Below, one piece after another: positions 26,171 to 58,901 of a DNA stretch of 64,000 nt. The first letter of the stretch is position 1; each line of letters opens with the position of its first letter. The DNA is from Stegostoma tigrinum (taxonomy: Eukaryota), in contig NC_081380.1 of NCBI RefSeq assembly GCF_030684315.1, positions 34,808,705 to 34,872,704 on the forward strand, read 5' to 3'. The translations under genes and the position numbers were made by a program. Under the pieces are notes generated by a model. The model was not told the origin of the DNA and ran no database searches. It saw only the letters and a list, made by a program, of their open reading frames with translations.

Positions 26171-27422
26171 TTTTTAAAAAATCCTTAATTTTTTAAAATG
26201 TCATCTTTACCATTGTGGAGATTGGAGGAATTCTCACACAGTTTGTGAAGGATTACCCTCTGCAGTAGAATAGAACACTTTGTTGTCTGGTAATGTTGAT
26301 GCACCTGACCTTGAAATTTGTGATGGAGTAAGTGTTTCATTTCTTCGCTGTGAAATCCTTCACCATTTTGTGTCCTTTGTGGATGAAGTGGTTTTACCTG
26401 GAGAGATCTGGTAACAGGAATCTCACTGAGATTTTCAGAAAATATCCATCTCTACCATGGAGTATGAGCAGTATTTCCTCACTGTCCCTAAGAGGCGCCC
26501 TTGGCTGATCTTATGGGAATATTTTGTGGTTTTACACGGAATACTGAGGTTCCACAGATGCAAGACTTTTTTTCCTCTCTCTGCTGCCCCCGGCACAAAA
26601 TAAAAAGGTGTTTCAAACCTCTCAGTCAGCTGGTGGATGGAAGCTGTTGATGTCTTCAAAGGCTGCGTTCAGCGTACATGCTTTCTAATATGGGTGCCAA
26701 TTGGAAACTGTCTGGACTTGATGGCATGTTATTGTGACACTGAATTGGTAAATGGTAATGTCCTGATGTGTTTAAGACTTAGGGATCAATGATAAACTAA
26801 CAATTCTGACTCTTTCTATTCCCTCCTCAACACGTTGACATCTTCCCTCCTAACAGGGTCAGTTATCTCTGTTATGATCCACTGTTGTCAGCAGCTTCCC
26901 AAGAATCTGGTTCAAGTGGCCGTTTTCTGTGGGCTGAGACAGTGACCATTGGCTAACTGAGTTAAGGCTGTCATAGCCAAATCCAATCCACAGTCCAACA
27001 GGAATCACTGGACAGTAATAGTAAGCAAGGGACCTCTTTTTTTATTTTCAGAAACAAAAACAGAAGCTGCTGGCAAGGTTCAACAGGTCTGGCAGCATTG
27101 GTGAAGAGAAATCAGAGTGCATGTTTCAGGGCCCAGTGACCCTTCCTCAGAACTGTTTGTTTTGCTCCCCGTTTTACCTGTGCTAAAAGATATGGTCAAA
27201 TTGTAATAGCTTCCTTACTACTGCCCTTGCTTACTACCAGCTGGAAATTAAATTGTTTGCTTTTGGTTGATGCAGTGTGTCATGGGCATAGTTATTGCAA
27301 CACAGACAATTAGTCTCACATGGACAGTGCTGAAACTTGATGACTTTATCCTGTAGATGTTCCTCTTGTGTCATTGGAAAGCTTCTATTTTTGCAAGCAA
27401 ACAGAACACGTGTGCACCTTGT

Positions 27423-27650
27423 ATCAGAGACAATGGGAACTGCAGATGCTGGAGAATCCAAGATAATAAAGTGTGGAGCTGGATGAACACAGCAGGCCAA
27501 GCAGCATCTCGGGAGCACAAAAGCTGATGTTACGGGCCTAGACCCTTCTTCGGAGAGGGATGATGAAGGGTCTATGCCCGAAACGTCAGCTTTTGTGCTC
27601 CTGAGATGCTACTTGGCCTGCTGTGTTCACCCAGCTCCACACTTTGTTAA
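27423..27650. mobile_element. Foldback Penelope pLTR element with two degenerate hammerhead motifs and TSD
   Basis: Inverted arms; flanking direct repeat gtgtgcac(c/a)ttgt at 27410-27422 and 27652-27664. Confidence 0.85.
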
Positions 27651-29974
27651 TGTGTGCACATTGTGCCTGTTTCAATTTAGCAAATAGGTGACAATTAGTC
27701 TCTGACTAATTTCTCAAGGCATTGCCCTGAGAAGTCAGGGTCAACCAGTCTGATTTAAATATAAACAAAGCTGGATAGTTAACTGTCAGTCACCATCTAA
27801 CTGCATGCCCCATGGCAACAACTCTACCACTTACCAACCAAACAGCAGTTTCTTTCCATACGGTATAAAACTTTATTCCCCTATGCCTTTGTATTCTTGC
27901 AAATGTCTTGTGTGCAAGATTAAAACCTTTGAAAAATTCCCTATTTTGACAGCAGTGCCATTAGATTATATTGCAGTGCTGGCTTCCGGTCCTATGTAAG
28001 CCTGTCCCTAAACACCTTTTGTTTTAAGACACTTCTTTAAAATCCACCTCCTTGATTATACTGTACTAATATCTCCGACTTTGTCAAATTTTGAGTAACT
28101 GCCCTGTGAAGCACCTTGGGGCATTTTAGTCTGCTGCAAGTCTGCTTTGTGCCTTTTCTGCCTCCCTCCATTTATAAAAGTTAACATGATGCACAATACT
28201 TTGCATGCTACTGATAAACCAGGAGCTGGGCCTACACAATAACTTCTGTAGTGGAGTTTTCATTGGGTATGTGTTTTGGTACCTATGTGGAAAAAGTGGT
28301 GAATCAAGGGCATGCTTCCTGAATGATGGACTCAAAATAAAAGAAACTGTATCTTTTGGATTTGAATGTGCTTTTTCAGACTGAAACCCAAGTTGGGGTC
28401 TGCAATATTTTATTGGGCTAATTTCCAGAGCAAAACAAATGGAAGAATTACCTGGATGTCTGATGGCAAACAAAACAAAACTGCGACATCCATCAGTTTT
28501 GGATTGCTTATTTGGATCTGAATATTGACTGTGGCAGCAACCAAAATGTGAAATAACTGCCAGTGAATTGTTATGGAAGTGTAACTTCTTTGACTAGGAG
28601 GGAGTTTTGATCTCCACTTTAGTTGTACCCTTTCCAGAGTCTACAAATGTCCCCTTTGTCTAGTTGTTCGGAAATAGGAATTTGAATATTTACTGATGTT
28701 TGTCTGGATCCGATCTGAGCTGGCTTCAGCTTTTTTGGTGATGTGACCTGGATAGAAAAGTCAATTTTGGTGTTTGTTCACTCAGTGCCCACAAAGCGCT
28801 GGAAGGGGACTGGCTCACTGTCCAGCACCTGATGATACTCGTGATCGTGATCCAAGTGTTGGGTATCACTTGGATGCCACAAGTCAGCAGCAGGACATTG
28901 GGCCGCAGCCCAGTCTATTTTTAATTTAATTTGTTCTTTTTTTTTTTCCCTTTTTAGGGCAGAACCCACCTCCCACCACCATCCTGCCTTTTATTAAACT
29001 CCTGGCAATCCTTCTTCCTTGTTGACATTTCTTTCTTGTGTAATCTAAAAAGGTTGTATATTGACAGATATTGGGGCAGAATGGATAAGATGAAAGGTAT
29101 TGCTCATCCTGTAGCACTGAATCTGTAATAAAGGGGAAGAGAAATTTTACCGCTGCCTTTGTAAAGACCTATTTATCTAATTTTTAACACACTTATAATC
29201 AATTCTGTTTAAACTGTTATTTGGAATTTTGTCAAGAACCCTGTGGTGTGCTGTAGTACGAGCCATGTCATACAGTCAGGTTTTGTTTCAACCCACTTCA
29301 CTTTGTTTCTACTGAATCTCTCAGACCCATCTTCATTCAGCATTCTGTGTGCTATTTTGAATTTTGTTGAACTGGATCCGTTAACTCATACTGTCAAACA
29401 GTCATGATTGTTCATCTGAGGAACTTTCTTTCTGCCTGTTGAAACCGTTCTGTGTATCTTTATCTTTAATCCTCCCACGCAGTCTTGAAAATGTTGCTTT
29501 TAAACTTGCTGAACACATGTGCCTTTAAAAGTTGTTATCAAGCACTTCTTACAAAGCTTCAGGAACACTCCCTGTACGATGGAATGCAAACGCCCAGGTA
29601 TTTAAAGAGGGTGGGGATGTTTTGCCACTTCTTTGCAAGAAAAACTCCAACCTTGATCTAAAGTGAAATTATTCTGCCAGTTCCAATCTGTTCAAGGCAG
29701 TGGAATTTAACTTTTGATTGCTTGGCTCTGCCACTGTTCAAGTTTTTTAAAAGAATAATTGTGAATCTCACTGGAGTGTTAAATGTTGAGTTTATTTATG
29801 TTACATAAAAATCAAAGGGATGATTTAGAAAAAAATCTTGTGAATAAAGCACCTGCTACAATCTCAGAATTGTAGGTTTTATCAGTCCATCATTAAAAAT
29901 TGCCATTCAGCCCATTTGGTTAATACTGGCTCTCTGCCTGGGGTCTTAATCTACCTAGGAGACTTAATCATAAG

Positions 29975-30115
29975 GTGACACCTCTGACAGACAAGCACTC
30001 CCTCAGCACTCCATTGGAATGTCATCCTGATTTTTGTAATCAAGTCTCTAGACTGGGAACTTGAGCCCGCAAGTTTCTGACTCGGAGGGAAGTGTGTTAA
30101 CAATGAGGCCACAGT
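29975..30115 (-). mobile_element. Deu-domain SINE 5' fragment
   Basis: Antisense tRNA-like head similar to the 36145 copy. Confidence 0.55.
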
Positions 30116-30660
30116 TCACTCCCAGAGAGAGAAAAGCGTATTAAATGTTGGTTAAGTCTTGCCAGTTTCAGTAACTGATACACCACGACAGGAACGCTGA
30201 CAAAAAATAGAAGTTTGGACCCACACCAGATTTAGTAAGTTTAAGAGTTGTCTAAACAAACACAAAGTAAGTTGCTTGTATGGTATTTAATGATTGATTC
30301 TAAGAGGTAACCTTGCTATTTCAACTGACCGTTTTGCTGTCGTTGAACTAATCATGAAACATGTCACCTTCCTGCAAACAACCTTACTGAGGTGGGTCAT
30401 TGGTATCATTCCAGTCTGCGCTAGTCTGTTGGGAACAATCCAGGAGCTTGGAATACAGGGAATCTTTGTATATAATTTCTAATATTCCATTCTTATGGAG
30501 CTCACTTGCCTAGCAAATTAGACCTATTAACTTGGTGAGTAATGCCTAGTATTTCTTGATGCCCCCCACCCCTTTCCTTTCCAAATGAATAGGACTTTGG
30601 AAGGTTAATTTGACTTTACTTTGGCTTTCCAATTCCTTTTCTGGGTCAGTTTAGAAGTAA

Positions 30661-31266
30661 GATAATAAAATGTGAGGCTGGATGAACACAGCAGGCCCAG
30701 CAGCATCTCAGGAGCACAAAAGCTGACGTTTTGGGCCTAGACCCTTCATCAGAGAGGGGGATGGGGTGAGGGTTCTGGAATAAATAAGGAGAGAGGGGGA
30801 GGCGGACCGAAGATGGAGAGAAAAGAAGATAGGTGGAGAGGAGAGTATAGGTGGGGAGGTAGGGAGGGGATAGGTCAGTCCAGGGAAGACGGACAGGTCA
30901 AGGAGGTGGGATGAGGTTAGTAGGTAGGAGATGGAGGTGCGGCTTGGGGTGGGAGGAAGGGATGGGTGAGAGGAAGAACAGGTTAGGGAGGCAGAGACAG
31001 GTTGGACTGGTTTTGGGATGCAGTGGGTGGAGGGGAAGAGCTGGGCTGGTTGTGTGGTGCAGTGGGGGGAGGGGACGAACTGGGCTGGTTTTGGGATGCG
31101 GTGGGGGAAGGGGAGATTTTGAAGCTGGTGAAGTCCACATTGATACCATTGGGCTGCAGGGTTCCCAAGCGGAATATGAGTTGCTGTTCCTGCAACCTTC
31201 GGGTGGCATCACTGTGGCACTGCAGGAGTCCCATGATGCTGTTCCTGCAACCTTCGGGTGGCATCA
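30661..31266 (-). mobile_element. 5'-truncated Penelope-like element (GIY-YIG C-terminus plus pLTR)
   Basis: ORF 30983-31267 GLLQCHSDATRRLQEQQLIFRLGTLQPNGINVDF; hammerhead motif with GAAA changed to AAAA; TSD tttagaag(t/c)aag at 30650-30661 and 31267-31278. Confidence 0.9.
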
Positions 31267-34200
31267 TTTAGAAGCAAGCTTGGTTGAGTCAAAACTTGAA
31301 AATTCAAGCTTGACTCAAGACTCCAGCCCATCAAGATGATGTAGGGCTGAAATGTTGTTCTCTGGATTGGGTATTAAACAGAGGTCATTCAAATCCATCC
31401 GGGACACAGGTTCTACAGCAATCTTTGGAGAAGAGCAAGGATTTCACTTGATTTCCTGGCCAACATCTGTCCCTTGAGCAAAACTAGTTGATCGCCATGC
31501 TGCAGTTTTTGGGGGCTTGCCATGTGTAACTTCCCTCTGTTTCACAAATAATGAAATAGTTTTGAGGAGAAGTCACTAATTTTTGGTTGTTGTGTGATCC
31601 AAGGTACAGAGATGCCACCCCAGTTGCTTGATAGATGATAAGGCTCCTTCTTTTGCTTAATTTTGCATTGTCCTTTGAAAGTTAAAACACCAGTCATTAG
31701 GAGGTGCCAAACATCAATTCATCTTGCCTCAGTAAAGCACTGTGTTTTAGCACCTTCAGCCATTATATATAGTTATAGTTGTAAAAATACTCCTCTAATA
31801 ATTTTGGCCAAAACTTTCAAAATTGAGGGAAGGTCACTGGTGCGAAATGTTAACCCTGTTTTAACTGTGTCGATGCTGCAGACCTCTTGAGTTTTTCCAG
31901 AAATTTTTTTTATATATTTCTGATTTTCAGCATGCATAGCTCTTTAGTTTTTCTTTATATTTCAAACTTTCAAAACTTGCCAAACTTGATTTGGTGAGAG
32001 GTCTGGCAGCTGCTGAACCCCAAGCTTTTGAGTGCTCCAGTGGGTGTCAAACGTTACTTAGTAGCTAAGTGTTTTCTAATTTTTAAATGCCTGTATTTTT
32101 TTCATTACTTACTAACTGAGAAGGTGGAATGGCCCACTAGAGTGGGCTATGGAAGCCACACGTCAAGGTTAAAATAGTTTCTAGTTTCCCCGTAACAAAA
32201 TCTCTTATTTCCCCTGCCCTTGATAAATGGGAAGTCTAATTTTTCCTCTGCAGTGAGATGTGATGGTAATTCAGAACGAGTTACAGGTTTGAAACTGTTT
32301 GCTGATGGTGCTCTGACATTGAGTTGGGGATGGAAAGGACCTGAACGTCTCAGAAGTTTTAAGACTGATCTCAATGCCCGTACTTGCCCTCCTTTTCTCT
32401 TGGCGCTTTTTTTAAACAAAAAAAAAAATCTGAACGTGAATGGCCCAAACTGTTCGACCTCAACAGGGAGGGACCATAGCAGGAACCAAGCCATATGGGT
32501 GGTGATGGTGTTGCAATAATGGTTAAAAGGAATTCCATTTGAATTATTTACCTAGAGCTAAGTGACAGTCCTCCAAATATCTATGCAATGTTTAGACAAA
32601 ATGGAGCAGATACAGGTACTGTTTTGTGCACTGTCTGTGTGAGTAGATAGTTACAGTTGCTGTTAAATGTTACTTTTGTGGTTGGAGGGAGTTGCTCCCA
32701 TGAATTGAATGTAAGACTTGTTCACGGCTCTGGCACTGACTTTAAAACCAGGTAGTGGCTTCTTGATTGCAGACACTCTGCTTAACTTTGGAAAGTGGAT
32801 AATCATTGTACTGATTTTGCATTTTCATAACTTCCACCTTGGCCTCTCTTGAGCTGAGGAGTTACCAACCAAAGAAAGATTGACCCTGCAATTTAGGGAT
32901 GGGAGAAGTTCCATAGGAGGTGGTAGCCTGTGCGTTTGTAAGGCCAAGAATAAATTTTGGGTTGCCTTGTAATTCCATGTTTGCAGTCCTAACTAGGAAC
33001 GGGTTTTTGTGTAAATGTTGACCTGACTGCTAGTGAGTGTTATCTGTTATCTAATTCTGATGTATGATATTTTAAGATTGTACTTTACATGACAAATTTT
33101 GTTTTGGAGGCTTTTATGAAATTTAATTATTCATGGAACGTATTCAAATCGTGCTTCTATTTCCTGATAAATTTGCATTGACACAGATGGATTCATTTGT
33201 GTGGTTGCTGCATCAAAATAGCACTCTGGGATTGGTGGCATAACAGATACTATGTTTTGATTTCATTACAGCTACTGAGAATTTACATTTTGCTTTGTAG
33301 CTTGGTCACATGTTTTTAAAAAGGGCTACGTGCCAAGTTTATTTTAAGTGGTTATGGATGTTATGTGTTGGTTGGTTCGTGAAGTTAGCTGATCTGAAAC
33401 TAATTTCTTCTAGCTTTTGATTCATATATCTTATCTTATTATTAACTGAGGAGGTCTTTATGATCTTAATGCTGCTCCTGCAGTGAGAATTGTAATCAAC
33501 ATTGTGTTTAAGTGGACTCCCTTATTGAAGGGAGTCAGACTGCATTGGAGCTGGAGAAACTCTTGAGGGAAGGGGTGCTAAGTGTTATCAAGGAGCCTGA
33601 TGACACAATCTGATTCTGTTTTGTCAAACAGCCATAGGCTCACGATTTTACAGAGGTGACCGGAAAGCACTCAGCAATTATAATGCCTGGCTGACTCTTG
33701 TTGTTTATCATATGCAAAAATGATGGGGCTATTTGAATCTATAGCTGAGTCACCCAAGGTTCCTCTGCTGCTTGGTCTGCTGTCTTCATCCCACTAAATG
33801 TGAGGGCATGTTTTATAAGGTGTGAGGTCACGAGTTTCCTCGTGCTCTATATTTTTCCAATCTCTCGAGCCACTCCACTTTCTAACGAATGTTCTTGAAG
33901 GGAGTGAACACTTTATTGGGATATTTATAGAACAAATACAATCCATGAGACAAAAATAATAGTGCATAGGCACCTACTGTACTGTGCCATGAAGTCGTAC
34001 AGTATGGGAGCAGCATGCTGATTCTCATTAAGACTGGAAGAGATTTTGCAGAGACAGAGTCTAGCTCCTTTTCTTCACTCGTAAAGAGGCAGGGTGGAAA
34101 AATAGAACTAGAGCTTCTTTTAAAAGTTTCATCACAAATTCTTTGAACAGAAAGTAAACAAATAACTGGAACGGAAGCTCTGGGCAAGCAGTTCTGGGAC

Positions 34201-36144
34201 AATGTTGCAGTTGGCCATTGTGTTTCAACATGCAGTTGCCCTAGTCAGTTAATAGTGTGGGTTACTTGTAAAGAATTCTGATAGGAAGAGGGGAAGGTTT
34301 TAAATACAGGCAAGTTTTTTTCATTAAAACAACCATTTTGGAATTGAGTGCAATACTACAGTCATCTTGGAAAAGTTCAAATGTTGGGTGCCTCGGATGG
34401 CCTTCAGCTGATGGATCACTAATTGCCACATAAGTGGAAATTTGTGCGCAAGATTGTGGTTGAGTTGCCTAATTTCCTGACATCTTTGACCGTCACATAT
34501 AGGAAAGCCAATCGTAACCTGTCTGTACCATCTTCCTACCCCCATTAAATGGATGCAAGGATTTGAATTGCGTTTCGCCAATTTGAATAATTTCTCCATC
34601 AGCTCCCACTTGGTCTTTCTACCATCAAGGTTTGCTGAAGTTGTTCTCTGGATTTACCTTTTCTGTTCTGTTTAGTCTGTTCGCTGAACAGGTTTCCACA
34701 GTGTCACTTCCTTTTCATAAATGCAGAACCTAAATATCTCCAATCTTCCCTTTTGTGTAGGGAGACAAAAAAATGCCAATTTGTACATTGTGCAGAATAT
34801 GTAAAAAATGAACTATGAAAGCCATTTGGAGCTGATATATTTGAGATTATTTTCTCATCACCCTTACAAAGTGAACATGTACCAGAAACTGCATGCGGTC
34901 CTGGCAGAGATCTTCAGTTCCAGTTACCTGTTTTCACTCCCTTTTTTTTTGTCAAAAGGACGTGTATAAACAAATCTTGAATTCTAGCTCTTTCTCTTTG
35001 TTTTCCCCCCTCTCTCCTTTACTGGGATCGGTATTTATAAATTTAAGTGGACACCCTTTTGCCTAGAAAGCTGCATGTCTACTTGACACCTGAAGAACAT
35101 ATCATAGGCCCTTGGAAGGCATCACTGAGCCACATTCTGTTATGGACAGCATGTGTGTATTCTGGTAACTCTAACATTTTCTGCACTTCGCAGAATATTA
35201 GCAAGTGTGGAAACTCTCTTGCTGAGTTTCCTATTGGTCCAAAGTATGGTGAGATGTAACCCTATTTGTCTTTTGAAGAGGGGTAGAAAGCACCACTTAT
35301 TTCGTTATTAACTTTAGAAACAGTCAGCAAAGTGGTTTGCATGGATCCCTGTGGAGGTGACTTGACGGTTCTGCACACAATTGAATACTGGAGCTTAGTA
35401 ATTAAGTAGAAATTCAAGGATAGCTTTTTTTGTCTTGAGAAACTGCTTTTGAATTATGATAATAGTGTATTGTCAGTAACTGAATACAGAGGGAAAGGAT
35501 GGAAAACTATATGGACTGGCAATTATCTTCCCAGCCAGACAGTCCTTAAAAGGCAACCTGCCTTGTGCAACCGATTTTACTTTTGAGTGTGGATTAATGT
35601 TCTTATAGCCTGTGAAAATTTAGAGTGGTTAAAAAGAGTTTTTGGCACTAATTGCTTGGATCTCTTTATTAAACAAGGGGAATGGCAGACATGGGAAATT
35701 AAACAAGAAAATGCTGGCATTTCAGACCTGCTCTGACAAATCTGTACAATCTGCCTATTGTGGACTTGACACACTTATTTAATTACCTACTTCAGTGACA
35801 GCCAAACTCTTGGAAATGTGGGCTGTACGCTTGGGACAAAAACAGGGGTGGAGTTGTGATTGCTCAATAGAAATGGAAAATGGAAACCTCCGTACAAGAA
35901 CATTGTGGGACGCCCATGAAAGAGCAAGAAAGCAGGGCCGTTCATACTCGGGGGGTGGGGGTGGGGGGGGGGGGGAAATCCTGTGTTCCCTCTTCAAATA
36001 CAACACCAAGCAGTTTATCTGTCTTTCCCAGACTTTTCTCACTCAATGTACCCTGATGCTTCAAAACCTCACTCTCCAACTGATAAACATTTAGGGCTGA
36101 AGAAAGTTGTAAATGTCTCTTCCCTGGCTTGAGTTTAGACCACT

Positions 36145-36535
36145 GTCTGATGTGGCTCAGTTGGTAGCACTCCCACTCCCCCTCTGAATTAGAATGTTGT
36201 GGGTTCAAGCCCCATTCCAGTTAACTTGAGCACAAAAATCAACATTGATAGTCCAGTGCAGCACTGCAGGGATGCTGCACTGTTGTGAGTGCTTTCTTTT
36301 GGATAAAATGTTAAAGTCAAGACCCTGTCTGACCTCTGGTGGTAAAGGATCCCATGACTCCATTTCAAAGGCAAGCAGGTGAGTTCTTGGAAGTGTTTCG
36401 TCTAAAGTTCATCTCCCAATCAACATCGCAAAAAAAAATTATCTAGTCATTATCACATTACTGTTTGATGTGTCCAAATTGATGGTCATGTTTCCTACAT
36501 TACAGTAGTGGCCACTTGCTTATTTAGCTTTAGTG
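36145..36535 (+). mobile_element. Deu-domain SINE (SacSINE1-like), near full length
   Basis: A box gtggctcagttgg, B box gggttcaagccc, and central ggataaaatgttaaagtcaagaccctgtc...ggatcccatg resembling the Deu core shared with AmnSINE1. Confidence 0.7.
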
Positions 36536-37052
36536 CTTCAGAACAGATCCCAGCTGGGTACACATGTGGCCCTGCACATGCTGTAGGCTTGTAGTAAGTG
36601 CAATCTCAGCAACAATAAATCACAGGAAACCATTGTCAAGATGAGTTGAGTCGGGACTAAAAAAATCTGCTCATTCATCAGAATAAACACTTGTAAATTC
36701 CAGAATCCCAACTGTAAACAGGATTTTCAAAGGGTGACGAGTCCTAGGTCATCCTTGGTGACATTCCAGCCTTAGTGCTAGTACAGTTTCTGGTACTTGG
36801 GTCCTGTTACCCTCTTGAGCACACAAGATGTTAACACCTTTTAAATTAATTCTAGTTGATGCAAATTTTGTTTCATAGCCAGCAATTTGAAGTTAAATGA
36901 AAAGAACTCATTAATGTAATTTACTCTTGGGTGGGTGGTGGGGAGACACTCTAAATCTACAAAACTGATCTGCTTCTCAAGATGATTGATTTAAAACTTC
37001 ACTGTCAGTCTGCATTTAACTCTGTTAGTGAAACCTGGCCACCTGCTTATCA

Positions 37053-37462
37053 GAGATAATGGGAACTGCAGATGCTGGAGATTCCAAGATAATAAAATGT
37101 GAGGCTGGATGAACACAGCAGGCCAAGCAGCATCTCAGGAGCACAAAAGCTGACGTTTCGGGCCTAGACCCTTCATCAGAGAGGGGGATGGGGGGAGGGA
37201 ACTGGAATAAATAGGGAGAGAGGGGGAGGCGGACCGAAGACCCTGGACTGACCTATCCCCTCCCTACCTCCCCACCTACACTCTCTCCACCTATCTTCTT
37301 TACTCTCCATCTTCGGTCCGCCTCCCCCTCTCTCCCTATTTATTCCAGTTCCCTCCCCCCATCCCCCTCTCTGATGAAGGGTCTAGGCCCGAAATGTCAG
37401 CTTTTGTGCTCCTGAGATGCTGCTTGGCCTGCTGTGTTCATCCAGCCTCACATTTTATTATC
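37053..37462. mobile_element. Very young foldback Penelope pLTR element with two hammerhead motifs
   Basis: Inverted arms 37088-37240 and 37310-37462 (153 bp, one mismatch); TSD cacctgcttatca at 37040-37052 and 37462-37474. Confidence 0.92.
37148..37184 (-). ncRNA. Minimal type I hammerhead ribozyme motif (intact core)
   Basis: Minus strand ctct-CTGATGA-a-gggt-ctag-gccc-GAAA-cGTC-ag: conserved CUGANGA and GAAA boxes, stem II, palindromic ACGU stem III and a GUC cleavage triplet. Confidence 0.75.
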
Positions 37463-38267
37463 ACCTGCTTATCACTTGTCTGATCAAGGCTATCCACCTG
37501 AAATGGTAAACTTTTTTGTTTTTCTGTCTACTGCTACTGTCTCACCTGTTGAGTGTTTGGATATCAGTTTTGCAGCATTTGATTTTTTTATTCACTAACC
37601 TGTCCTTGGAGGCATGTATGTGGTCACATTTGATTGCCTCTGGCTAATGTCATCTCTTTTTTTCTCCTGGAGCTTGTAACTGAACCATGGGGTTCTGTTC
37701 CATGTGAGCATTGGAGCGAGAGTGGAATTTTTTTTTGAATACAGCATTTAAAATACATGACTGTTGGTTCAGCTGAACCAGCAATAGGATTGAGTGGCAT
37801 TGACTACACACTACATCTCTTTTCTGCTATCAACTACTAATGTGTTAGTTCAGAAGGTTGTCATTATGGTTGGCCACACTCCTCCTTTTCCTTGATGGAG
37901 GCAAAACTCAAGTTCCAAGGCACTTCTCTTCTTGGAACTCAAATGACTAGTTATGTTTTGATGTCATCTGGTTGTAAACTACAGCTGTTTGCCTCTTAAA
38001 GGAGGTGCTTGATTTGGTGGGGGTGGGGGGATAAATTGGCAGCTGTATCACTGACTTACCACACCACTTGTACTCCAGATCACGTTTAAGGTTCAGCAAA
38101 TTTGAAATTTTTATCCCCCTCCTTGATTGGAATTTGCTGTCTTTCAGATACTGATGAGTTTCACTCGAGTCAGTTAAACTCTGCTTCTGGAGTTAAGATG
38201 CACAGGGCCACATTGTCCACGTTGAACCTCTTAATGCTTACATCTTTGTTTTTATTTTCTGTTTCAG

Positions 38268-38377
38268 GATGCTCCAGTTACTTCCTCTTTCCTAATCACA
38301 GGGTTTGGGCCAAGGCTGCATCCACTGTCATTTGGAGAAGGTGTTGAAGTGGACCCTTTGCCACCAAAGGCGATTAG
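38268..38377 (+). CDS. RFLNB: Refilin-B coding exon 2
   Basis: tttcag|GAT...ATTAG|gtaaat; DAPVTSSFLITGFGPRLHPLSFGEGVEVDPLPPKAI(R); phase 0/2. Confidence 0.94.
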
Positions 38378-38714
38378 GTAAATAGTATCACACCCTGTGC
38401 TGGAATTGCAGGATGTTTTGGGTTCTTTTTCTTTTCCAGTGGTGAAATGGGAAAAGATTTATAATTGAGCAAGACAAATTTTGCTTACTGTTGATTTTAT
38501 ATATAATCCATGTGCAGGTAATATCGATTTTACTGATGAACAGGGCTAGCAACATAACTCGAGTAAGTTCTACACGTTCCATTTAGGCACCATACCTGAC
38601 ATTACAAACTGAGCATTTTCTAGATATTTTCATTAAATCAGTGTGACTAGCTGCATGTTCTCAAAACCAGATAACTTCTTTTTCTTTTTTATTTAACCTA
38701 TTTTTCTAATCAAC

Positions 38715-38818: not shown

Positions 38819-39676
38819 ACCTCCTGGCAGTGGTGGGCTGCCTTGCAACTAAGACTTTATTGTTTGTTATCTTGTAATAAAATGTGGCAAGCTGTTCCTG
38901 TTACATTGCTAAATGTAAAACCTTCTCCAGGTGTTTTGGTTATCTCCATTTTAAAAGGAATAAACATGCTCCTGCTATGTTTCCCCTTTTAGGTGTTTTG
39001 CAACTGACTTAAATCAAGTGATATTTTTCCCCCCCCCCTTTTTTCCTTTAGCTGGTCAATCAGCCAGCAGCTTGACTTTTAACCCCCTCACACCTTTATA
39101 AGTTGGTTATGTCGGGCTGACAAATTGGTTGCTGCATTTCCTCGAGTGTGAATGCCTTGAGACTAACCGCTCCTTAAGTCACGAACGGGGTATTCCAGTA
39201 CCGAATGTGCTTATTTGCTGGATATTTTTAATGATTGCCATTGTCCTGCAATGGATAGATGCATCCTTTGAACTCTAATCTGCTTTTAAGCACCAGGGCT
39301 TGGAAAAAATGTTAACTACAAAGTCAAATTTTAATGCAAATCATACTAAGATATTTCTGTTCAGGACATTTTGTTAAATTTGGAATGACTGTAAGCTCGC
39401 CTTGCAAGTTCTATCCAAGCTGTCAAAAATGCATTTTCTGATAGACTTGCCATCCTTGGGTCACTGAATTTAAACAAATCCCCACTGTGCCCTGGACAGC
39501 TTTGTTACAAATGGAAAGAAGCATGTTTGATTCCACAGTAGTTGAGTTTCCAGGTAGTAACATTTCTAGCTTCTTGTTCTTCCTAGCTTACTATCCAGTG
39601 TAAGGCTCTTGTGTTTGGCATGCTGTAGGAAAATTTTATGCTTTGAATAAAATGCTCCTTGTCTGTATATCCCCAG

Positions 39677-40010
39677 GTACACCTCCTCTGTGAAGTATGA
39701 TTCAGACCGACACTATGTCAATAATATACTCCTGCAGCACACACTGGGTGTTGACTCCTGCAGCCAGACAGTCATCTGCGTTCCCAATTGCACATGGCGG
39801 AACTACAAGACGGAGCTGAGATTTGAGCCGCAACACAAACCGTGGAGGTTCCGCAGCACTATCATTGTGTACCCAAAGTATGCAAAGACAGTCTATACTA
39901 CCACTGTGGATTACAACTGCAGAAAAGCAGCACGGAAATTCTTGTCCAGTGTGGAACTTGAAGCTACAGATTACAATGGCAGTGAAATGGTGTTCCAGGA
40001 TAGCCAGTGA
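39677..40010 (+). CDS. RFLNB: Refilin-B coding exon 3 (filamin-binding region) to stop
   Basis: ccccag|G TAC ACC; YTSSVKYDSDRHY...CSQTVICVPNCTWRNYKTELRFEP...STIIVYPKY...DYNCRK...FLSSVELE. Spliced protein is 219 aa. Confidence 0.95.
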
Positions 40011-49661: not shown

Positions 49662-50650
<989 letters not shown>

Positions 50651-50839
50651 TTTTTGTTATGTTTTAGACAGTTTATTGGAAGCATATTGCAGCAACTCAG
50701 ACTGCCGTGACATGGAACTACTAATGGTTGTTCGGGTTTGAAGATTCGTTATCATTGAAAGAATTATAATTTTTTTTGCAATATCACTATCCCTTTACTT
50801 AACTGTCTCAGGCAGAGAGAGACACTGTCCAGTCTTGTC

Positions 50840-51380
50840 ACAGCTGTACAGTCACTTTTGAAATATTGTGTACAATTCTGGTCTCCCTACTATAGGAAGG
50901 ATGTTGTGAAACTCGAAAGGATTCCAAAAAGATTTACAAAGATGTTGCCAAGGTTGGAGGGTTTGAGCTACGGGGATAGGCTGGGGTATTTTCCCTGGAG
51001 TATCTGGGGCTGAGAGGTGATGTTATTGAGGTTTATAACGTCATGAAGGGCATGGATAAGGTAAATAGGCAAGGTCTTTTTCCCAAAGAGGGGGGAGTCC
51101 AAAATTAGAGGGCATAGGTTTAAGGTGAGGGGGCAAGATATAAAATGGACCAAAGGAGCAACTTTTTTTATGCAGAGGAGGTCCATGAAAGAAATGAGCT
51201 GCCAGGGGAAGTGGTGGAAGCTGGTATGATTACAACATTTAAAAGGCAACTGAATAGGTATATGAAATACAAATGGTTTAGAGGGATGTAGGCCTAGATT
51301 TGTGCAGGATATCTGCTTGTCATGGACAAGTTGGACCGAAGGGTCTGTTTCTGTGCTGTACGTCTCTTATAACTCTATGA
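50840..51380 (+). mobile_element. CR1 (HER1-like) LINE 3' end
   Basis: EYCVQFWSPYYRKDVVKLERI remnant and tail ggaccgaagggtctgtttctgtgctgta. Confidence 0.85.
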
Positions 51381-52064
51381 TGGTGATATAGAGTATGATG
51401 ACTGCTGAATATTTTGTATTTGCTGTACTTAGCTTTTGCTCAGCGAACCATTGTAACACACACATCACACTGAGATCAGAAAGAAGTGCAGAATCACTAG
51501 ATGAGTTTGCAACTTTCTGTCATTTATCTCATTAGTCACAATCGCCTCCTTGATTTCTTTCCAGATTATAAAATATCTTTTCCATATCCTGATAGGAATG
51601 GAAATAAAAAATCTGCTTAGGGTGTCTGCTAATGCTACTCTGAATTATTTAAAAGTATTGAAGAATGGTGATTTGAACTCCCTTTTGAAAAAAATGATAA
51701 GGCCACCAGATTTCTCTAGTTATATTGTGCATAAACTGACATAAAAAATTGCAGGCGTGACTACTATAAAGTTGCACTCTGCACTCATAATATAATAAAA
51801 CAGCTAATTTGTAATGATAATAAAACATAATTCTATTTGGAGAAAGTCAGCAGTTGAAATTCAGTCTGGTGATTCAGCAACCATTTACGAAACATTTTAG
51901 CATGCAGTGCCACATGAACCCTGTGATTCTGTAAATATTCTACATCATTCCCAGGCACCTATTTATTCCGTAACTTAGTAAGGGGAGCATTCGCATCAGG
52001 ATTAAGCAATAATATTCCAGGTATGCAAACTCATGCTTGTTCTGTTACAACTTGTAATCACAGG

Positions 52065-52078
52065 ATGCCATCTACTGG
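52065..52078 (-). promoter_or_regulatory. Candidate CTCF site in LIAT1 intron
   Basis: Minus strand CCAGTAGATGGCAT matches the CCASYAGRKGGCR core, in non-repeat sequence. Confidence 0.4.
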
Positions 52079-52629
52079 AATCCATACAATTTGCAATAAA
52101 ATAATCCTACCGTAAGAATTTGGCAGTATTCCTATTATAGTAACGTTCTGCCATGTGGGTGATGCTGTTTTAATTATACAGTTAATGAGAAGCAATTAAG
52201 ACTTGATTATACAGATTGCACGGATTCAGATTAAATCTGAGCTCTGCTGAGCTTTGGGTAGCTTTCTACAGCAAACTTCCAGCTCTGGTCCACGATGGTA
52301 ACTGGGAAACAGTCCAAATACATTTGTATATATTCACTGCCATTTGCTTCATTTCTCCATGGAAAATTATACGATATTAGGGGGAAGGTAAATTACCTTT
52401 AAATTAACAAACTTGGGACTTTTAAAATGATTCTTTTGTCCAGCATCTTGAGGAAGTACGCTTGGAAGTAAACTGGGTTTAGTTAACAATTTGTTTGTTT
52501 GTAAGATGAAAAACAACTCAAATGCCAGAAAAAAATGACAAACTTTACTATGAAGTTGACTTCAGTCAGAAAAATCATATCTTGCAATTGTTAAATATCA
52601 CACTTCCGTGGTTGCGAAAGATGTGAATA

Positions 52630-53030
52630 CTTTTGAGCAAGTACAGAAGAAATTTATCAGATTGCTTCCAGGGATTCACAATTATGTGAATAGACTGCAG
52701 AAACTGAGGTTGTTCTATTAAGAGCAGAGAAAGCAAGGTTTAAAGTAATGAAGGCTTTAGATAATTGAAAAAAGAAAATGTTTGTGATGGTTGAAAGGAT
52801 GACACAACAGAGCATAAATTTAAAGGTGACTGGTAAAAGAAGTAGCAAAGGGGCTAAGCTTTTATATGCAACAAATGGTTAGGATTTGAAATGTTTTGTC
52901 TTATCAGGTGATGGGAACAGATTCAATATCCTAGAAAAGGGAATTGGATAAATTTTTGGTGGAAAAAAAATTTCAAGGAAATAAAGAAAAAGCAGATGAG
53001 TTCTTTAAAAGAGCTGGTGGAGACTTCCTT
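52630..53030 (+). mobile_element. CR1 LINE 3' fragment, old
   Basis: Decayed EQVQKKFIRLLPG...HKFK...WN region. Confidence 0.6.
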
Positions 53031-53039
53031 TAAGGGACA

Positions 53040-53410
53040 AGCACATCATTGACAAGACCAGCATTTGTTGCCCATCCCTAATTCACTCGAACAGAGTTGC
53101 TTGCTAATGCCACTTTTAACAGTAGTTTAGGATCAACCACAATGCTCTGTGTCAGGAGCCAACCACGGCCACACTAGGCAAGAAAGGCAGACTTCCCTCC
53201 CTCTCAGGACATTAGTGAACCGGATGGATTTTTATGACAGTCAGTGATAGTTTTCATGGTCACGATCAACGAGACTAGCTTTCAATTCCAGATTTATTGG
53301 TTGAATTTAAATTCCATCAGCTGCCGTTGCTGGAATTTGAACCTGTATCACCATTAGCCTGGGTTGTTGCATTACTAGATCAGTGACATGAAAACTATGT
53401 CATCGTCTCC
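53040..53410 (-). mobile_element. tRNA-derived SINE with LINE-like tail
   Basis: Antisense copy of the family also seen at ~57665-57880 and ~58060-58595. Confidence 0.65.
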
Positions 53411-54270
53411 TTCTTAAATGAGCAGGCTATATTATGTCATCATTCTGTGATACAGAGGAGTAAAGCATGTCCTCTTATTTTCTTGTGAAGTAAAGTATTA
53501 CACATGCTGCAGATTTGAAATAAAAACAGAAGGTGCAAGAGAAACTCAGCAGGTCTGGCAACATCTATGGAGAAAGCAGCAAAGTTAACATTTTAAGTCC
53601 AATATGATTCTCCTTTGGACTCTTCTGCTTCCAGTGCTTATTATTTAAATTCCTCTTTGTTTCTGTCTAGGTCATTAAAACATTGCTTGGATAAAATAAA
53701 ATGGAGTTAACATTCATATTAGCAAGATATTAAAGCACAACTGGAAACAAAAGCAGATTGGATGGGAGATGAGTCGGTGCAGAATTCAGGCTCTTCACTA
53801 GAAAAGAAGTTTAATGTGTGGGAAGGCAGTACCTGACCTGATGACCAGCTCTGTATCATTTTAAGGCTTAGTGGTCCACTGTTTACTTCTCATTTCAAAC
53901 TTTTACCAAGATTTTCAACTTTCCAATTGTTTCCCCTTTGCTTTAGTCTTCCTACTGAGCTATTCACTTCGTAAAAATATATTTAATTTGGCTGAACACC
54001 AATAGATAATTCCCTTGCCATTTTCCCTGTGTTGTCTTTTTATATCTATAGTTTTTCTCCCTCCAATTCACTTTCTGATGCCAGTATACTTCTTTATTCC
54101 TGAATAAGTGCACGAGTCCAAAATGCTATCTCCTGTCAAAAGGTGCTGACAGACCAGTCACTTTTCTTGCGGCTTTGTATGGTTACTTTTACTAAAGGCA
54201 GTGTATTCCTTGTTTTCCATGTATTTCACAATCTTAGATTTTAATAATCCAAATTTGAAACGTGCCCTAC

Positions 54271-54484
54271 CCAGAACTGTCTCATCTGAAGTCGATGGAG
54301 TACTGGAAGAATTTCTTCTTGTCTTACAGGGTTTCTTCTTTTCCTTATCTCTCTTCTTAATTTTCTTCTTTTCTGCTGATTCAACACTCAGACTTGTGGT
54401 TGACTTAATCCTACATTTGCTGGTAGGTATTTTATCCTCCATTCCGAGATAACGATTGATCTTGCTTAACCTGCAATTTTGCAT
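54271..54484 (-). CDS. LIAT1: LIAT1 first coding exon (lysine-rich tract)
   Basis: ATG at 54484 (in-frame TAG directly upstream; alternative ATG 54442). EKKKIKKRDKEKKKPCK corresponds to the LIAT1 poly-K tract. Donor CTG G|gtaggg gives phase 1, matching the exon at 50104. Confidence 0.7.
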
Positions 54485-54899
54485 CTAATTTCATAAATTT
54501 TCTCTTTTCCTTTTTTTCATGTCAAAGAATCTTTTGTTTCATTTTCTTAAAATTACTGGCCAGTTTTACAGGGCAAGGATTTTCAAAAGAATATTTTTAT
54601 ATGCGCGAATCCTTGGCTCTCAAAACCACATTCGGCAGCAGAATTTAAGTACGAAACTATTTCCAACGCTTTCCTCCTCCTCCAAACTGTCCCGGATTTT
54701 AATTTGTAGTCATTCCCTCCAGTTCTTTATCGTTAAAAGTATTCTTTTTTATTACATTACTATATCGTTTGATCTTTTGCTTTGAAGCATCTGCTCTCAC
54801 CTAGAGCGAACAGGCCAAACTGTACTTCATGCTTACTCAGACAGCTTCCTGTTTAATCTATCACTTTTTCTTTTTGTTGTTCTTCGCATTCTTTCCCCC

Positions 54900-55454
54900 G
54901 TCGAAGTTAGTTGATTTATCTCCCCCTCCCTCTCACTGTTTTAAACTAGAAATCCTACTTATCCAGCGTGCACTCTGTTGTGCTATAGTCACCCTTAGGA
55001 GCCAAACGACTCGTCACCATGGAAATGCCTCTTCCCTTTCCCTTGATACATCCGCCAAAGAACATAGTCCCAATAAAAATAACCGCAGTACCAATTAAAA
55101 CAAAAAACAAACTGAAATCGTCAAGGACACTCCAGGAATTTTAAGCTAACAACATCTAATGGTCGTGAATCTGTTTCGCTTCGCGGTTTCCTAATCACCC
55201 AAGGTTTATGTATCATTCCGCCGCCGTCCCACTTTGCGCCTGGTCTGAGCTGAGCTGCGGCTACAAAATGCCGGGCGGCTTTCTGGTTTTCCGTTCCCAG
55301 TTTAAGACCCGTGATGTTTTCAGCTGTGCTCGGGGGTGGTGGAAGCAATGAGGCTTGATCGGCTTTGGAATCTAAGAGTAGTTTCAGTGTGGCTGAAGTA
55401 TGAACTCGGAGACGGAACCGACCTTCGAAGTCACTAGTGGGGCGGCTCACGGGG
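54900..55454. promoter_or_regulatory. Bidirectional CpG-rich promoter between LIAT1 and EXO5, with an RFX X-box-like motif at 55013-55026
   Basis: Divergent start codons 970 bp apart; local CpG enrichment; GTCACCATGGAAAT. Confidence 0.6.
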
Positions 55455-55599
55455 ATGGACAATCACAGGCCAGAAGGTGTTGGAGGGATGGTTGATGCGG
55501 ACGGACAAACGTGCCGGAAGTCGAGTGGAACGATGCAGCCGGAGCTTAGTGACGCGGAGCTCCTCGCATTGGAATTGGATTTGTTCTGCGGCGAATGTG
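55455..55599 (+). CDS. EXO5: Exonuclease V coding exon 1
   Basis: gggATGg Kozak; ...PELSDAELLALELDL resembles the EXO5 N-terminal SDLSDSEFLEFLDL motif; donor G|gtactt, phase 1. Start could be 55455, 55488 or 55533. Confidence 0.7.
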
Positions 55600-55659
55600 G
55601 TACTTGGTTCATTAATACTTGTAGATGAAGCATTACAGTGAAGCTGATCCTGTCTGTTA

Positions 55660-57610
55660 TCGAGCATACAGCACGGAAACAGACCCTTCGGTCCAACTCG
55701 ATCATGCCGAACAAATTTCCCGAATTACTAAACATGTCCCATTTGCCTGCATTTGGACCATATCCCTCTAACCCCTTCCGATTCACGTACCTGTTCAGGT
55801 GTTTTTAAAAACGTCTTAATGCATCTACCACCTCCTCCGGCAGATCATTTCCACTACGAGATAACAAAGTGTGGAGCTGGATGAACACAGCAGGCCAAGC
55901 AGCATCTTAGGAGCACAACCGCCCAAAGAGGATCCCCCTCGTTCTCACACACCACCCCACCAACCTCCGGATACAACGCATCATCTTCCACCATCTACAA
56001 TCCGACCCCACCACCCAAGACATTTTTCCATCCCCACCCTTCTCTGCTTTCCGGAGAGACCACTCTCTCCGTGACTCCCTTGTTCGCTCCACACTGCCCT
56101 CCAACCCCACCACACCCGGCAACTTCCCCTGCAACCGCAGGAAATGCTACACTTTTCCCCCACACCCCCTTCCCTCACCCCTATCCTAGGCCCCAAGATG
56201 ACTTTCCATATTAAGCAGAGGTTCACCTGCACATGTGCCAATGTGGTATACTGTATCCATTGTACCCGGTGTGGCTTTCTCCACATTGGGGAAACCAAGC
56301 GGAGGCTTGGGGACCGCTTTGCAGAACACCTCCGCTTGGTTCGCAACAAACAACTGCACCTCCCAGTCGCAAACCATTTCCACTCCCCCTCCCATTCTTT
56401 AGATGACATGTCCATCATGGGCCTCCTGCAGTGTCACAATGATGCCACCCGAAGGTTGCAGGAACAGCAACTCGTATTCCGCTTGAGAACCCTGCAGCCC
56501 AATGGTATCAATGTGGACTTCACCAGCTTCAAAATCTCCCCTTCCTCCACCGCATCCCAAAACCAGCCCAGTTTGTCTCCTCCCCCCACTGCACCACACA
56601 ACCAGCCCAGCTCTTCCCAGGCACCCACTGCATGCCAAAACCAGTCCAGCCTGTCTCTGCCTCCCTAACCTGTTCTACCTCTCACCCATCCCTTCCACCC
56701 CAAGCCACACCTCCATCTCCTACCTACTAACCTCATTCCACCTCCTTGACCTGTCCCCTCCCCACCTCTACTCTCGTCTCCACCTATCTTCTTTTCTCTC
56801 CATCTTTGGTCTGCCTCCCCCTCTCTCCCTATTTATTCCAGAACCCTCACCCCATCCCCCTCTCTGATGAAGGGTCTAGGCCTGAAATGTCAGTTTTTGT
56901 GCTCCTGAGGTGCTGCTTGGCCTGCTGTGTTCATCCAGCCTCACATTTTATTATCTTGGATTCTCCAGCATCTGCAGTTCCCATTGTTTCTGATACATTT
57001 CCACATACAAACAATTCTGTGTGTGGGGAAAAGAAAAACAAAGTTGCTGGAAAAGTTCAGCAGTTCTGGCAGCATCTGTGAAGGAAAATAATCAGAGTGA
57101 ATGTTTCAGGTCCTCTTCCTCCGAACTGCACGTGGAAAAGGTTGTCCCTCAAGGTCCCTTTTAAATCTTTTTTTCTTCTCACCTTAAAGATATGCCACCC
57201 TCAGGAAAAGACTTCTGCTATTCACCTTATCTATGCCCCTCGTGATTTTATAGACTTCTTACAAGGTCACCTCTCAACCTCCTACACTCCAGTGAAAAAG
57301 TCCCAGCCTATCCCTATAACTTCTTCCTTCCTGGTAAATCTTTTCTTAACTTCTCCAACTTAATAATATCCCATCCCTTAGGGTAACTAGAACTGAAGAC
57401 TGTACTCCAAAAGTGACTTCACCAACGTCCTGTACAGTCTCAACATGATATCCCAACTCCTATACTCAGTGGTCTGAGCAATGAAAGCAAGTGTGCTAAA
57501 TGCCTTTTTAACCACTTTGTCTACCTGTGATGCAACTTTCAAAGAATTAGGTACTTGAACCCTCTAGGTCTGTATGTTCAACAACACTACCCAGGGCCCT
57601 ACTGTTAACT
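55660..57610 (-). mobile_element. CR1 LINE 3' fragment interrupted by two Penelope-family insertions
   Basis: Antisense tail catacagcacggaaacagacccttcggtcc at 55665; the CR1 sequence resumes at ~57000 and ~57130. Confidence 0.8.
55858..56995 (+). mobile_element. Penelope-like element, 5'-truncated, with GIY-YIG endonuclease ORF, pLTR/hammerhead and a short inverted 5' arm
   Basis: ORF 56144-56668 FTCTCANVVYCIHCTRCGFLHIGETKRRLGDRFAEHL...PVANHF...EQQLVFRL.TLQPNGIN; ctgatga...gaaa at 56864; TSD catttccac(a)tac at ~55846 and ~56996. Confidence 0.92.
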
Positions 57611-57815
57611 ATTTATTTTCCTTTTCAGGTGGCTGTTTAAAGATTTGTTAGCAGTGGAATCAATAGCCTAATGTTTTTACTACTAGACTATTAATTCAGA
57701 AACCCAATTTCCAATTGGTAATTAAAAGTCTAATGGTGACTATCAATTGTTAGGGAAAAAAATGTGGTTAAATAATGTCTTATTGGAAGGAAACTGCTGC
57801 CTCAGTGTGACTTCA
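57485..57815 (+). repeat. Donor arm of a ~330 bp near-perfect inverted duplication
   Basis: Reverse complement found at 58902-59236. Confidence 0.92.
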
Positions 57816-58179
57816 GATCCATAGAAATGATAATAGATACTTGTCAAAATAGTGGTGCCCACATTCCATGAGCAACTAAAAACACTCCTGTGACTCAGAA
57901 GGGTCTCTGTTCAAGTAGTATCCAGAATTGGAGTTCAGGCTGACCTACCCTTCTGGTGCAGTGCCAAGAGCATAGCACACTTATGAGAAGAGCAGGGAAG
58001 TTACTCCCAATATATTCTTCTGTTCAGTAATTATCCTACAATCAGCAGTTAAGGAGGCTGCAATTTAGTGGTAATATCACTGGATTAGTAATCTAGAGAC
58101 TAACCCTTGGGTTTTAATTTAACCTTGCTAAAAGTCAAATTAATTAATTAATTGAAAAAACCAGGAGTTGAAAACTGGT

Positions 58180-58398
58180 ATAATAATAGGGCATAGAACT
58201 GGATGAACACAGCAGGCCAAGCAGCATCAGAGGAGCAGGAAAGCTGGTGTATCGGGTCTGGACCCTTCTTCAGAAGAAGGGTCCAGATCCAAAACGTCAG
58301 CTTTCCTGCTCCTCTGATGCTGCTTAGCCTGCTGTGTTCATCCAGCTCTACGCCTTGTTATCTCAGATTCTCCAGTATCAGCAGTTCCTGCTATCTCT
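58180..58398. mobile_element. Foldback Penelope pLTR element (related subfamily) inserted into a SINE
   Basis: Inverted arms fused at cccttcttcagaagaaggg; TSD gttgaaaactg at 58167-58177 and 58399-58409. Confidence 0.85.
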
Positions 58399-58901
58399 GT
58401 TGAAAACTGCTGTTGTGAAACTATTGTCAGTTGCTGTAAAAACCTCATACACTTCATTGTCATTCTTACCAACTCTGGCCTATGTGTGACTGAGACCTAC
58501 AGCTGTGTGGTTGACTCCATGTGGTCTGCTAGCCACAATTCAAGGAAGGGAAGGAATGAACAACAATAGGGAGGTCACATTCCACAGCAGAAAATCAAAT
58601 AATTCTCACTTTATTGCTTGTGAGAGCCAATATTACTATAGCAACTACACTTTTTAGATGGCTTAATTTGTTGTGAAGTGCTCTGGGATGTCCTGTGGTT
58701 GTGTAGATGCCAGACTTTCTTTTCGGAGCAGGCAATTTCTTAGTAACCTGACCAACATTCTTTTCAATTAACAAAAAACACAAATTGGCCTAATACAAAA
58801 TGCTGGAGCAAATCAGCACGTCTGACAGATCTGTGGAGAGAGAAACGATAAACATTTCAAGTCTAGTTCAGCTTTGCTGAATGTTATCTGTATTGCTTGT
58901 T

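Follow-up and report, generated by a model that had tools for sequence, protein, structure and literature searches.

In the present study, we analyzed a window of 64,000 nucleotides from the shark Stegostoma tigrinum (contig NC_081380.1, positions 34,808,705 to 34,872,704), in which a Penelope-like element (PLE) has left four insertions built from two inverted copies of its pseudo-long terminal repeat (pLTR). Each of these units, and of the similar units in a genome sample, is probably the product of one PLE insertion in which both ends of a staggered cut in the target primed on the same RNA (double priming on one RNA). The observed part of this model comprises the layout of the units, the two end positions of their arms, the presence of exactly one tail, the target site duplication (TSD), the symmetry of the target, and the template shared by the two arms.

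Layout of the units

Positions on the element are given as the coordinate c, the number of bases from the hammerhead ribozyme cut, with the C of the GUC as 0. Self-comparison of the window and arm mapping revealed inverted arms with a one-sided tail at all four places where an earlier note on this DNA had described foldback insertions (units A to D). Two element ends stand head-to-head in each unit, with their 5' ends facing inward and their 3' ends next to the flanking DNA. One arm stops approximately at +64 past the hammerhead GUC, and the other approximately at +100 to +104. Units A, B, C, and D each lie inside their own direct repeat, which measures 13, 13, 9 (12 if an indel is allowed), and 11 bp, respectively (scores of 10, 13, 9, and 11, as length minus 3 per mismatch), and the inner junctions all differ.

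Unit A consists of a tailed arm on the reverse strand (27422-27559, c +104 to -33), which spans a mutated hammerhead, and a short arm on the forward strand (27561-27649, c -26 to +62); its TSD copies (27410-27422 and 27652-27664) are 13 bp long with one mismatch. Unit B has its tailed arm on the reverse strand (37048-37240, c +104 to -89) and its short arm on the forward strand (37241-37462, c -158 to +64). Both arms have an intact hammerhead core, and they differ at one of 153 aligned sites. The 13-bp TSD is perfect; the final five bases of the left copy (37040-37052) also match the tail end, and one base of the right copy (37462-37474) overlaps the short end. In unit C, the short arm on the reverse strand (55858-55918, c +66 to +6) has no hammerhead core and belongs to a subfamily unlike that of the tailed arm on the forward strand (55914-56995, start approximate; c approximately -967 to +104), which is a 5'-truncated element with an intact core. 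The left TSD copy (55846-55857) is 12 bp with a one-base indel relative to the right copy (56996-57008), and the perfect part is 9 bp (55846-55854 and 56996-57004). Unit D, with a perfect 11-bp TSD (58167-58177 and 58399-58409), combines a short arm of an older subfamily on the reverse strand (58183-58275, c +63 to -29) with a tailed arm on the forward strand (58269-58400, c -29 to +102), and approximately five bases at the junction are common to both arms. Intact hammerhead cores in the window were thus confined to both arms of unit B and one arm of unit C, with none in units A and D.

The genome sample consisted of 148 stretches of 10 kb picked by position on approximately 20 contigs (1.48 Mb), to which the window was added. 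In total, 328 arms were placed on a common coordinate, and arms were paired into units by position and orientation only, without the use of TSDs. The tabulated 3' ends were not random: 281 of the 328 fell in the windows +58 to +75 or +90 to +108, with two peaks approximately 35 bases apart, in line with the two defined RNA positions that had been proposed. Pairing gave 94 head-to-head units and 140 other arms. The units comprised 73 with a tailed and a short arm, 13 with a tailed arm and an arm ending before +58, three with an extended and an eroded arm, two with a tailed and an intermediate arm, two with two tails, and one with two short arms. Among the 76 units with both ends in the windows, exactly one tail was present in 73 (p = 2e-18 against 50:50). 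The exceptions were the two units with two tails, which had no TSD, and the unit with two short arms, which lay within a duplicated unit. The 12 long units chosen for study all had exactly one tail. In one stretch (L040:960-1450), two short palindromic units stood in tandem, the same 12-bp TSD occurred three times, and the right arms shared a private variant; this pair probably arose by later tandem duplication.

Unit sizes formed a continuous series from 133 bp to approximately 4 kb, and at least four subfamilies showed the layout. Most units were miniature and had no coding sequence. The density of 60 units per Mb corresponds to approximately 190,000 units in the genome of 3.2 Gb, if the sample is typical. 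A young inverted unit of 3.9 kb with arms that were 99% identical was located within a satellite array with a period of approximately 32 bp (L182:1-10000).

Target site

TSDs were scored as length minus 3 per mismatch with a cut-off of 8, and 1500 swapped left and right flanks served as the control. Outside the window, 65 of the 89 units scored at least 8, including one artefact that stems from the duplicated unit, compared with 22 of the 1500 controls, and 48 of the 89 units and one control scored at least 12; flanking repeats are thus more frequent than chance. In the 68 units with a TSD (window included, duplicated unit left out), the maximal TSD was 8 to 19 bp with a median of 14 bp, or 11 bp once bases also matching the element were subtracted. 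Each unit of the window is bracketed by its own repeat, as had been noted; however, the length of 11 to 13 bp given for these repeats represents the low side of the genome-wide range.

The target was A-rich in a symmetric manner. Read symmetrically, with the strand switched between the two sides, positions -8 to -2 outside the TSD were 45% and 49% A, against 29% in the background and 30 to 31% in the far flanks (p = 1e-13 and 1e-18; 68 units). Both sides were A-rich in 40 of the 68 units, with 7.7 expected. Loose ends of public contigs over window positions 27000 to 38000 coincided with the arm ends and were A-rich or T-rich, with 228 to 447 contigs per place (run X2). No targeting of microsatellites was seen in the 68 sites. 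Over units A and B, the public contigs showed the same junctions, and no joint skipped a whole unit, as an empty site would, among the 15 joints listed, beside which there were 4423 more.

Short overlaps between the TSD and the element were counted in 42 units with a perfect TSD, in which 30 tail junctions and 26 short junctions were usable. The mean overlap was 1.5 bases at the tail end and 1.85 bases at the short end, with 0.68 expected by chance (p = 9e-5 and 5e-7, respectively). Since the target is symmetric and the overlap is present at both ends, we infer two equivalent nicks, each of which primed with one to three paired bases.

Junctions and template of the arms

In the 85 units with a junction gap of up to 60 bases, the tailed arm reached further 5' in 39, the short arm in 40, and the reach was equal in six. 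When the difference exceeded 100 bases, the tailed arm was further in nine units and the short arm in eight. In the latter, each arm contained sequence that was missing from the other, and, therefore, both were copied from a template containing both. If the cDNA had folded back and copied itself, the tailed arm would always reach furthest 5'; the balance of 39 and 40 indicates that neither arm arose by fold-back copying of the other. Together with the symmetry of the target, this result supports the use of both target nicks, as the earlier note had inferred.

The 51 young junctions were joined with overlapping bases in 27, flush in seven, and with filler bases in 17. Among the 59 short units, 53 distinct pairs of 5' ends were found, and six pairs occurred twice. 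All 68 TSDs were distinct. Inner junctions were, thus, formed anew at each insertion, and are unlikely to have been copied from a master.

Several observations indicated that the two arms of a unit had a common template. Of 71 units, 70 had both arms from one subfamily, whereas 42% discordance was expected with random pairing; the arms agreed in 19 of 19 units at a site with an 11:8 polymorphism in the youngest subfamily. The comparison of private alleles covered 24 long units, 12 of them from the sample and window and 12 picked for long frames; the two arms of a unit shared such alleles 43 times over 16,443 sites, whereas different units shared them 50 times over 729,265 sites, and divergence was 2.4% within and 4.3% between units. 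Arm lengths were correlated (Spearman 0.49). Both arms were short in 59 of 87 units and both long in 20, while eight were mixed (p = 4e-12), and single arms were split 59:55.

5' boundary of the arms and single arms

The 5' ends of 197 young arms were concentrated near c -30. There were 42 ends in -35 to -27, 64 in -26 to +9, and nine in -129 to -36, which corresponds to rates per base at risk of 0.041, 0.010, and 0.0013, respectively, and to a 30-fold difference between -35 to -27 and -129 to -36. In the public contigs, 239 left the element at window position 37180, which is c -28 (run X4). A TATA-like motif starts at -61, 30 bases upstream of the cluster. We infer that the boundary at -30 is the 5' end of the RNA and that ends further downstream result from trimming. 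The Penelope promoter of Drosophila virilis was described as internal and TATA-less (PMC2377424); therefore, this case lends no support to a promoter at -61.

Other origins of the 5' ends were considered and rejected. RNA cut by the ribozyme does not appear to be the template because only five of the 197 young arms began at +1, against approximately 1.8 per base nearby, and four of the five belonged to two palindromic junctions. The lack of a pile-up at the ribozyme cut agrees with in vitro results in which cleavage was dispensable (PMC11167929). No consistent extra base that would point to a cap-derived G was present at the -30 ends in the contexts inspected. A splice junction at -30 was also rejected; the sole acceptor-like AG, at approximately -49, had no pile-up of ends, and no common exon preceded the ends.

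Arms that stand alone shared features of the paired arms. A TSD of 9 to 18 bp was found in 30 of 78 single arms and in seven of 1500 controls, and three single arms with a short-site end had a 16- to 22-base inverted piece of the tail between the TSD and the arm at its 5' end. Single arms look like the outcome of the same reaction with one cDNA cut back. The window contains two arms of this kind from the same family. The insertion at 30647-31278 on the reverse strand, which self-comparison placed at 30659-31268, has a short-site end (+66) and its own 12-bp TSD with one mismatch; near its 5' end (31200-31266), approximately 30 bases of element sequence are nearly duplicated, which suggests template slippage or re-priming at the join. 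The other is a single short arm at 15898-15982 on the forward strand (c -21 to +63).

Identity of the element

The long arm of unit C contains a 197-codon frame (56075-56668, forward strand), a C-terminal piece of the element with a weak match to the GIY-YIG endonuclease (EN) region (Pfam E 0.15). In the genome, a first look gave 226,003 candidates for this piece, and identity was approximately 96% for the best 150. Two frames of the same family, of 810 and 821 amino acids, matched RVT_1 (E 3e-5 and 8e-6), the reverse transcriptase (RT) domain, followed by GIY-YIG (E 0.003 and 0.002), all below the curated cut-offs of Pfam. Their translation shows a DKG motif, YIDD, and, between RT and EN, a CX4CxxC linker. 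The window frame and one further copy (L180) have a CxxC between GIY and YIG and two downstream histidines, which correspond to the CCHH motif with its two cysteines. A CX2-5CxxC zinc-finger-like linker defines Neptune and Nematis and is absent in Penelope/Poseidon, and CCHH is present in EN+ PLEs (PMC8557442). By these motif definitions, the family appears to be a C-terminal EN+ PLE of the Neptune or Nematis type. Its linker places it outside the Penelope/Poseidon clade, and, thus, it resembles Poseidon of Anolis carolinensis (PAc) at most in its working. The Penelope-like origin assigned in the earlier note is supported by the RT and GIY-YIG frame, the hammerhead, and the pLTR layout.

Copies that continue past the tail were represented by 1249 candidates, of which 40 were scored. 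In two (L205 and L216), the sequence passes from the pLTR through the tail into the open reading frame (ORF), and, therefore, both arm ends lie internally on the RNA. L205 also has an inverted arm in front of its direct pLTR, which is a tandem or partial-tandem arrangement. The probable ATG is at c +139, which apparently places the tail in the 5' leader. The repeat unit was calculated to be approximately 3.5 kb; no full-length copy was seen end to end. Other copies past the tail (L200, L203, L209/L210, L215, L219-L224, and L226-L228, around positions 1300-2200) jump back into the pLTR after 90 to 150 bases. They form direct tandem units of approximately 230 to 360 bp with one hammerhead each and break points that vary by copy, and resemble non-LTR (long terminal repeat) retrozymes that may be derived from the element.

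Hammerhead and RNA structure

The hammerhead core was conserved over 129 tailed arms, with the pairs of helix II maintained except for one G-U/A-U exchange; the predicted helix I was 2 bp by inspection. A scan of the window with Rfam yielded no hammerhead, and only hairpin-shaped miRNA models under the cut-offs appeared. The predicted core was intact in both arms of 15 of the 87 units and in one arm of 36, while neither arm spanned the whole core in 23. The idea that insertion routinely yields ribozyme-bearing hairpins was thus overstated. RNA folding of the whole arm gave no signal (z 0.19). Tail bases +75 to +82 are complementary to +17 to +24 just after the hammerhead, and this 8-bp pairing was kept in 77 to 98% of 123 to 127 tailed arms. 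One pair was variable (A-U, U-G, and U-A), which is too little to call a structure, and an RNA helix that places the two start sites is possible.

Discussion

We propose the following course of insertion under double priming on one RNA. A dimer of the RT-EN protein would nick both strands of the target approximately 11 to 14 bases apart, each nick lying immediately 5' to a run rich in T on the nicked strand. The nicks would leave 3' overhangs, each of which would pair by one to three bases at one of two sites on the RNA. One overhang would prime at approximately +100 from the hammerhead cut, which would give the tail, and the other approximately 35 bases upstream, which would give the arm without a tail. 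Both cDNAs would be extended towards the 5' end of the RNA; their free 3' ends would then be trimmed and connected through short pairing or with a few filler bases, and fill-in would produce head-to-head arms within a TSD. If the primed pLTR were the 5' leader, both cDNAs would run off at approximately -30 and form palindromes of 130 to 260 bp, whereas a downstream pLTR would give two long arms. If one cDNA were lost or cut back, only one arm would be left inside the TSD. The small palindromes represent dead products and not a separately mobile family.

A fold-back origin, in which the tail-primed cDNA snaps back and copies itself before an endonuclease or repair cuts the second arm approximately 35 bases short, combines published proposals of self-priming (PMC3846280) and EN-mediated resolution (PMC8557442). 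It would explain why the arms share a subfamily and private alleles, why their lengths are correlated, and why bases overlap at 27 of the 51 young junctions, some of which are perfect palindromes. However, a copy cannot exceed its template, and a cDNA primed at the short site cannot give a tail; nevertheless, the short arm reached further 5' in 40 of 85 units, and by more than 100 bases in eight. The target overlap at the short end and the equal target bias on both sides are also contrary to fold-back, which, in its simple form, is largely refuted and is left only if the asymmetry of long and short arms results from later deletion in the tailed arm. We regard it as improbable overall. A less improbable alternative, although still an unlikely one, is that each subunit of the dimer brings a separate RNA, both from one source locus, and that an asymmetric complex forces one tailed and one short start. 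Minimal hammerheads of PLEs are thought to act as RNA dimers (PMC4209133), and two RNAs would account for unit C, with two subfamilies in one TSD, and for the eight mixed units with short and long arms. However, independent RNAs predict approximately 35 mixed units among 87 and frequent discordance between arms, whereas eight of 87 and none of 19 were observed, and the presence of exactly one tail would have no simple reason.

Two further explanations carry very little weight with us. PAc cuts in its own pLTR in vitro (PMC11167929) and the arms of unit C come from two subfamilies, and, thus, a second element might have been targeted to the 5' end of a first at the same spot. Two successive insertions are hardly compatible with one TSD around both arms, no inner duplication, alleles from the same template, and a single tail, and we consider them very improbable. 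Slightly less probable still is a family resembling miniature inverted-repeat transposable elements (MITEs) or retrozymes, in which small palindromes are copied whole from one or a few hairpin masters. The six pairs of 5' ends that occur twice among the 59 short units, and two units with the same perfect palindromic junction at the cut site, are the traces that such copying might leave, but 53 of the 59 junctions are distinct, sizes are continuous from 133 bp to approximately 4 kb, single arms have the same two ends, and the layout occurs in at least four subfamilies.

Several points weigh against double priming on one RNA. The evidence comes from old genomic copies, and neither an intermediate nor an RNA end or an empty site was observed. 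TSDs were not detected by our search in 24 of 89 units and 48 of 78 single arms. Of the 42 junctions at each end, 12 at the tail end and 16 at the short end have unaligned bases before the TSD and were excluded from the overlap count. The boundary at approximately -30 falls where the first C-run and the hammerhead's 5' edge also lie, and may reflect stalling or a processing site; stalling at this C-run is made less plausible by the fact that the arms of a unit are mostly both short or both long. Eight of 87 units are mixed. Unit C, whose arms belong to two subfamilies and are short and long, is the sole such subfamily case among 71 units; it needs two templates in one insertion or later conversion. 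Shared alleles can also be obtained by gene conversion between arms or from one dominant source locus, and, therefore, a single RNA is unproven. In the in vitro work on PAc, the start site was the same with the top strand as with the bottom strand, and the pairing of two sites on one molecule was not covered (PMC11167929). PAc also belongs to another clade, and its tail is within the reading frame, whereas the tail of the shark element is apparently in the 5' leader.

The earlier note had compared the reaction to twin priming. In the twin priming of LINE-1 (long interspersed element 1), both target nicks prime on one RNA, and the cDNAs are joined by microhomology, which results in an inversion. 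The second primer anneals at variable places upstream, and the inverted and direct pieces are consecutive and non-overlapping. The comparison holds for the use of both nicks, but the shark element differs from LINE-1 in its fixed starts 35 bases apart and in that both arms cover the same stretch of the pLTR in 94 of 94 units. The same RNA stretch is thus copied twice, and the product is a palindrome.

The note had also offered these insertions as its best candidate for an under-described system, which the literature does not bear out. Inverted pLTRs with a one-sided tail and a TSD are known from Pen2a_Av, Pen2_Av, and Pen3a_Av of Adineta vaga; one element was described with two direct pLTRs, an adjacent inverted pLTR, a 31-bp tail on one inverted pLTR, and a 9-bp TSD, and self-priming was proposed (PMC3846280). 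An inverted copy with a one-sided tail of 30 to 40 bp was presented as typical of PLEs, with the tail ascribed to EN resolution and the formation of the structure called undefined (PMC8557442, scheme in Fig. 2). The shark element and the A. vaga PLEs have in common head-to-head pLTRs, a 30- to 40-bp tail on one arm, a single TSD, 5' truncation, partial tandems, and GIY-YIG at the C terminus. They differ in that the shark TSDs have a median of 14 bp, against 8 to 10 bp, and in that the shark units are mostly miniature, number approximately 60 per Mb, and showed no microsatellite targeting in the 68 sites. In PAc, two internal RT start sites flank the tail, both strands were nicked and extended in vitro, a dimer was predicted, and hammerhead cleavage was not needed for the reaction (PMC11167929). 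The shark element similarly has two internal starts around the tail, an AT-rich target, and a hammerhead that is upstream of these sites and apparently not the template end, but is distinguished from PAc by its CX4CxxC linker and by a tail that seems to be in the 5' leader and not in the ORF. One-tail pairing, TSD length, and the joining of arms are not described in the portion of the PAc paper covered.

The hammerhead resembles the minimal type I hammerheads of PLE pLTRs (PMC4209133) and animal non-LTR retrozymes (bioRxiv 10.64898/2026.07.22.740005) in its conserved core boxes, the bulged base before helix II, the palindromic helix III, and the very short helix I. Short retrozyme-like tandem derivatives of 330 to 360 bp are also present in the shark genome. 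However, retrozymes form direct tandem arrays, whereas the shark units are inverted and single.

The structure of the units is, thus, already known, and what is added here is the counts, which reject simple fold-back and make double priming testable. Our search by title and abstract did not find a published model of double priming on one RNA for PLEs; key older papers were outside this search and may hold parts of the counts or the model. The portion of PMC12910113 covered contained nothing on double priming. The formation of tandem and inverted PLE insertions was given as an open question (PMC8557442), and the steps after initiation were unvalidated in the work on PAc (PMC11167929). The presence of exactly one tail, the symmetric target, the independence of the tail from arm length, the single template, and the fixed 5' boundary all count against simple fold-back.

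We see an even chance that double priming is the standard mode of PLE insertion. A symmetric RT-EN dimer would then cut with a stagger of 11 to 14 bases and start two cDNAs 35 bases apart on one RNA, the tail would be the footprint of the spacing between the RT active sites, and the inverted pLTR would be a normal product and not an accident. Most events in this shark would run off the 5' leader at approximately -30, and this would account for the approximately 190,000 miniature palindromes. These insertions are dead, but, being so numerous, they supply shark genomes with short palindromes on a large scale.

Other features of the window

Another repeat family forms an inverted pair of 335 bp around unit D (57485-57815 and 58902-59236), with 98.5% identity and a distance of approximately 1.1 kb. 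An exon of a gene of the FAM101 (refilin) family is located at 39651-39998 on the forward strand (Pfam E 4e-47). An open frame at 49662-50252 on the reverse strand, for which no matching Pfam family was found, presumably resembles the C-terminal part of LIAT1.

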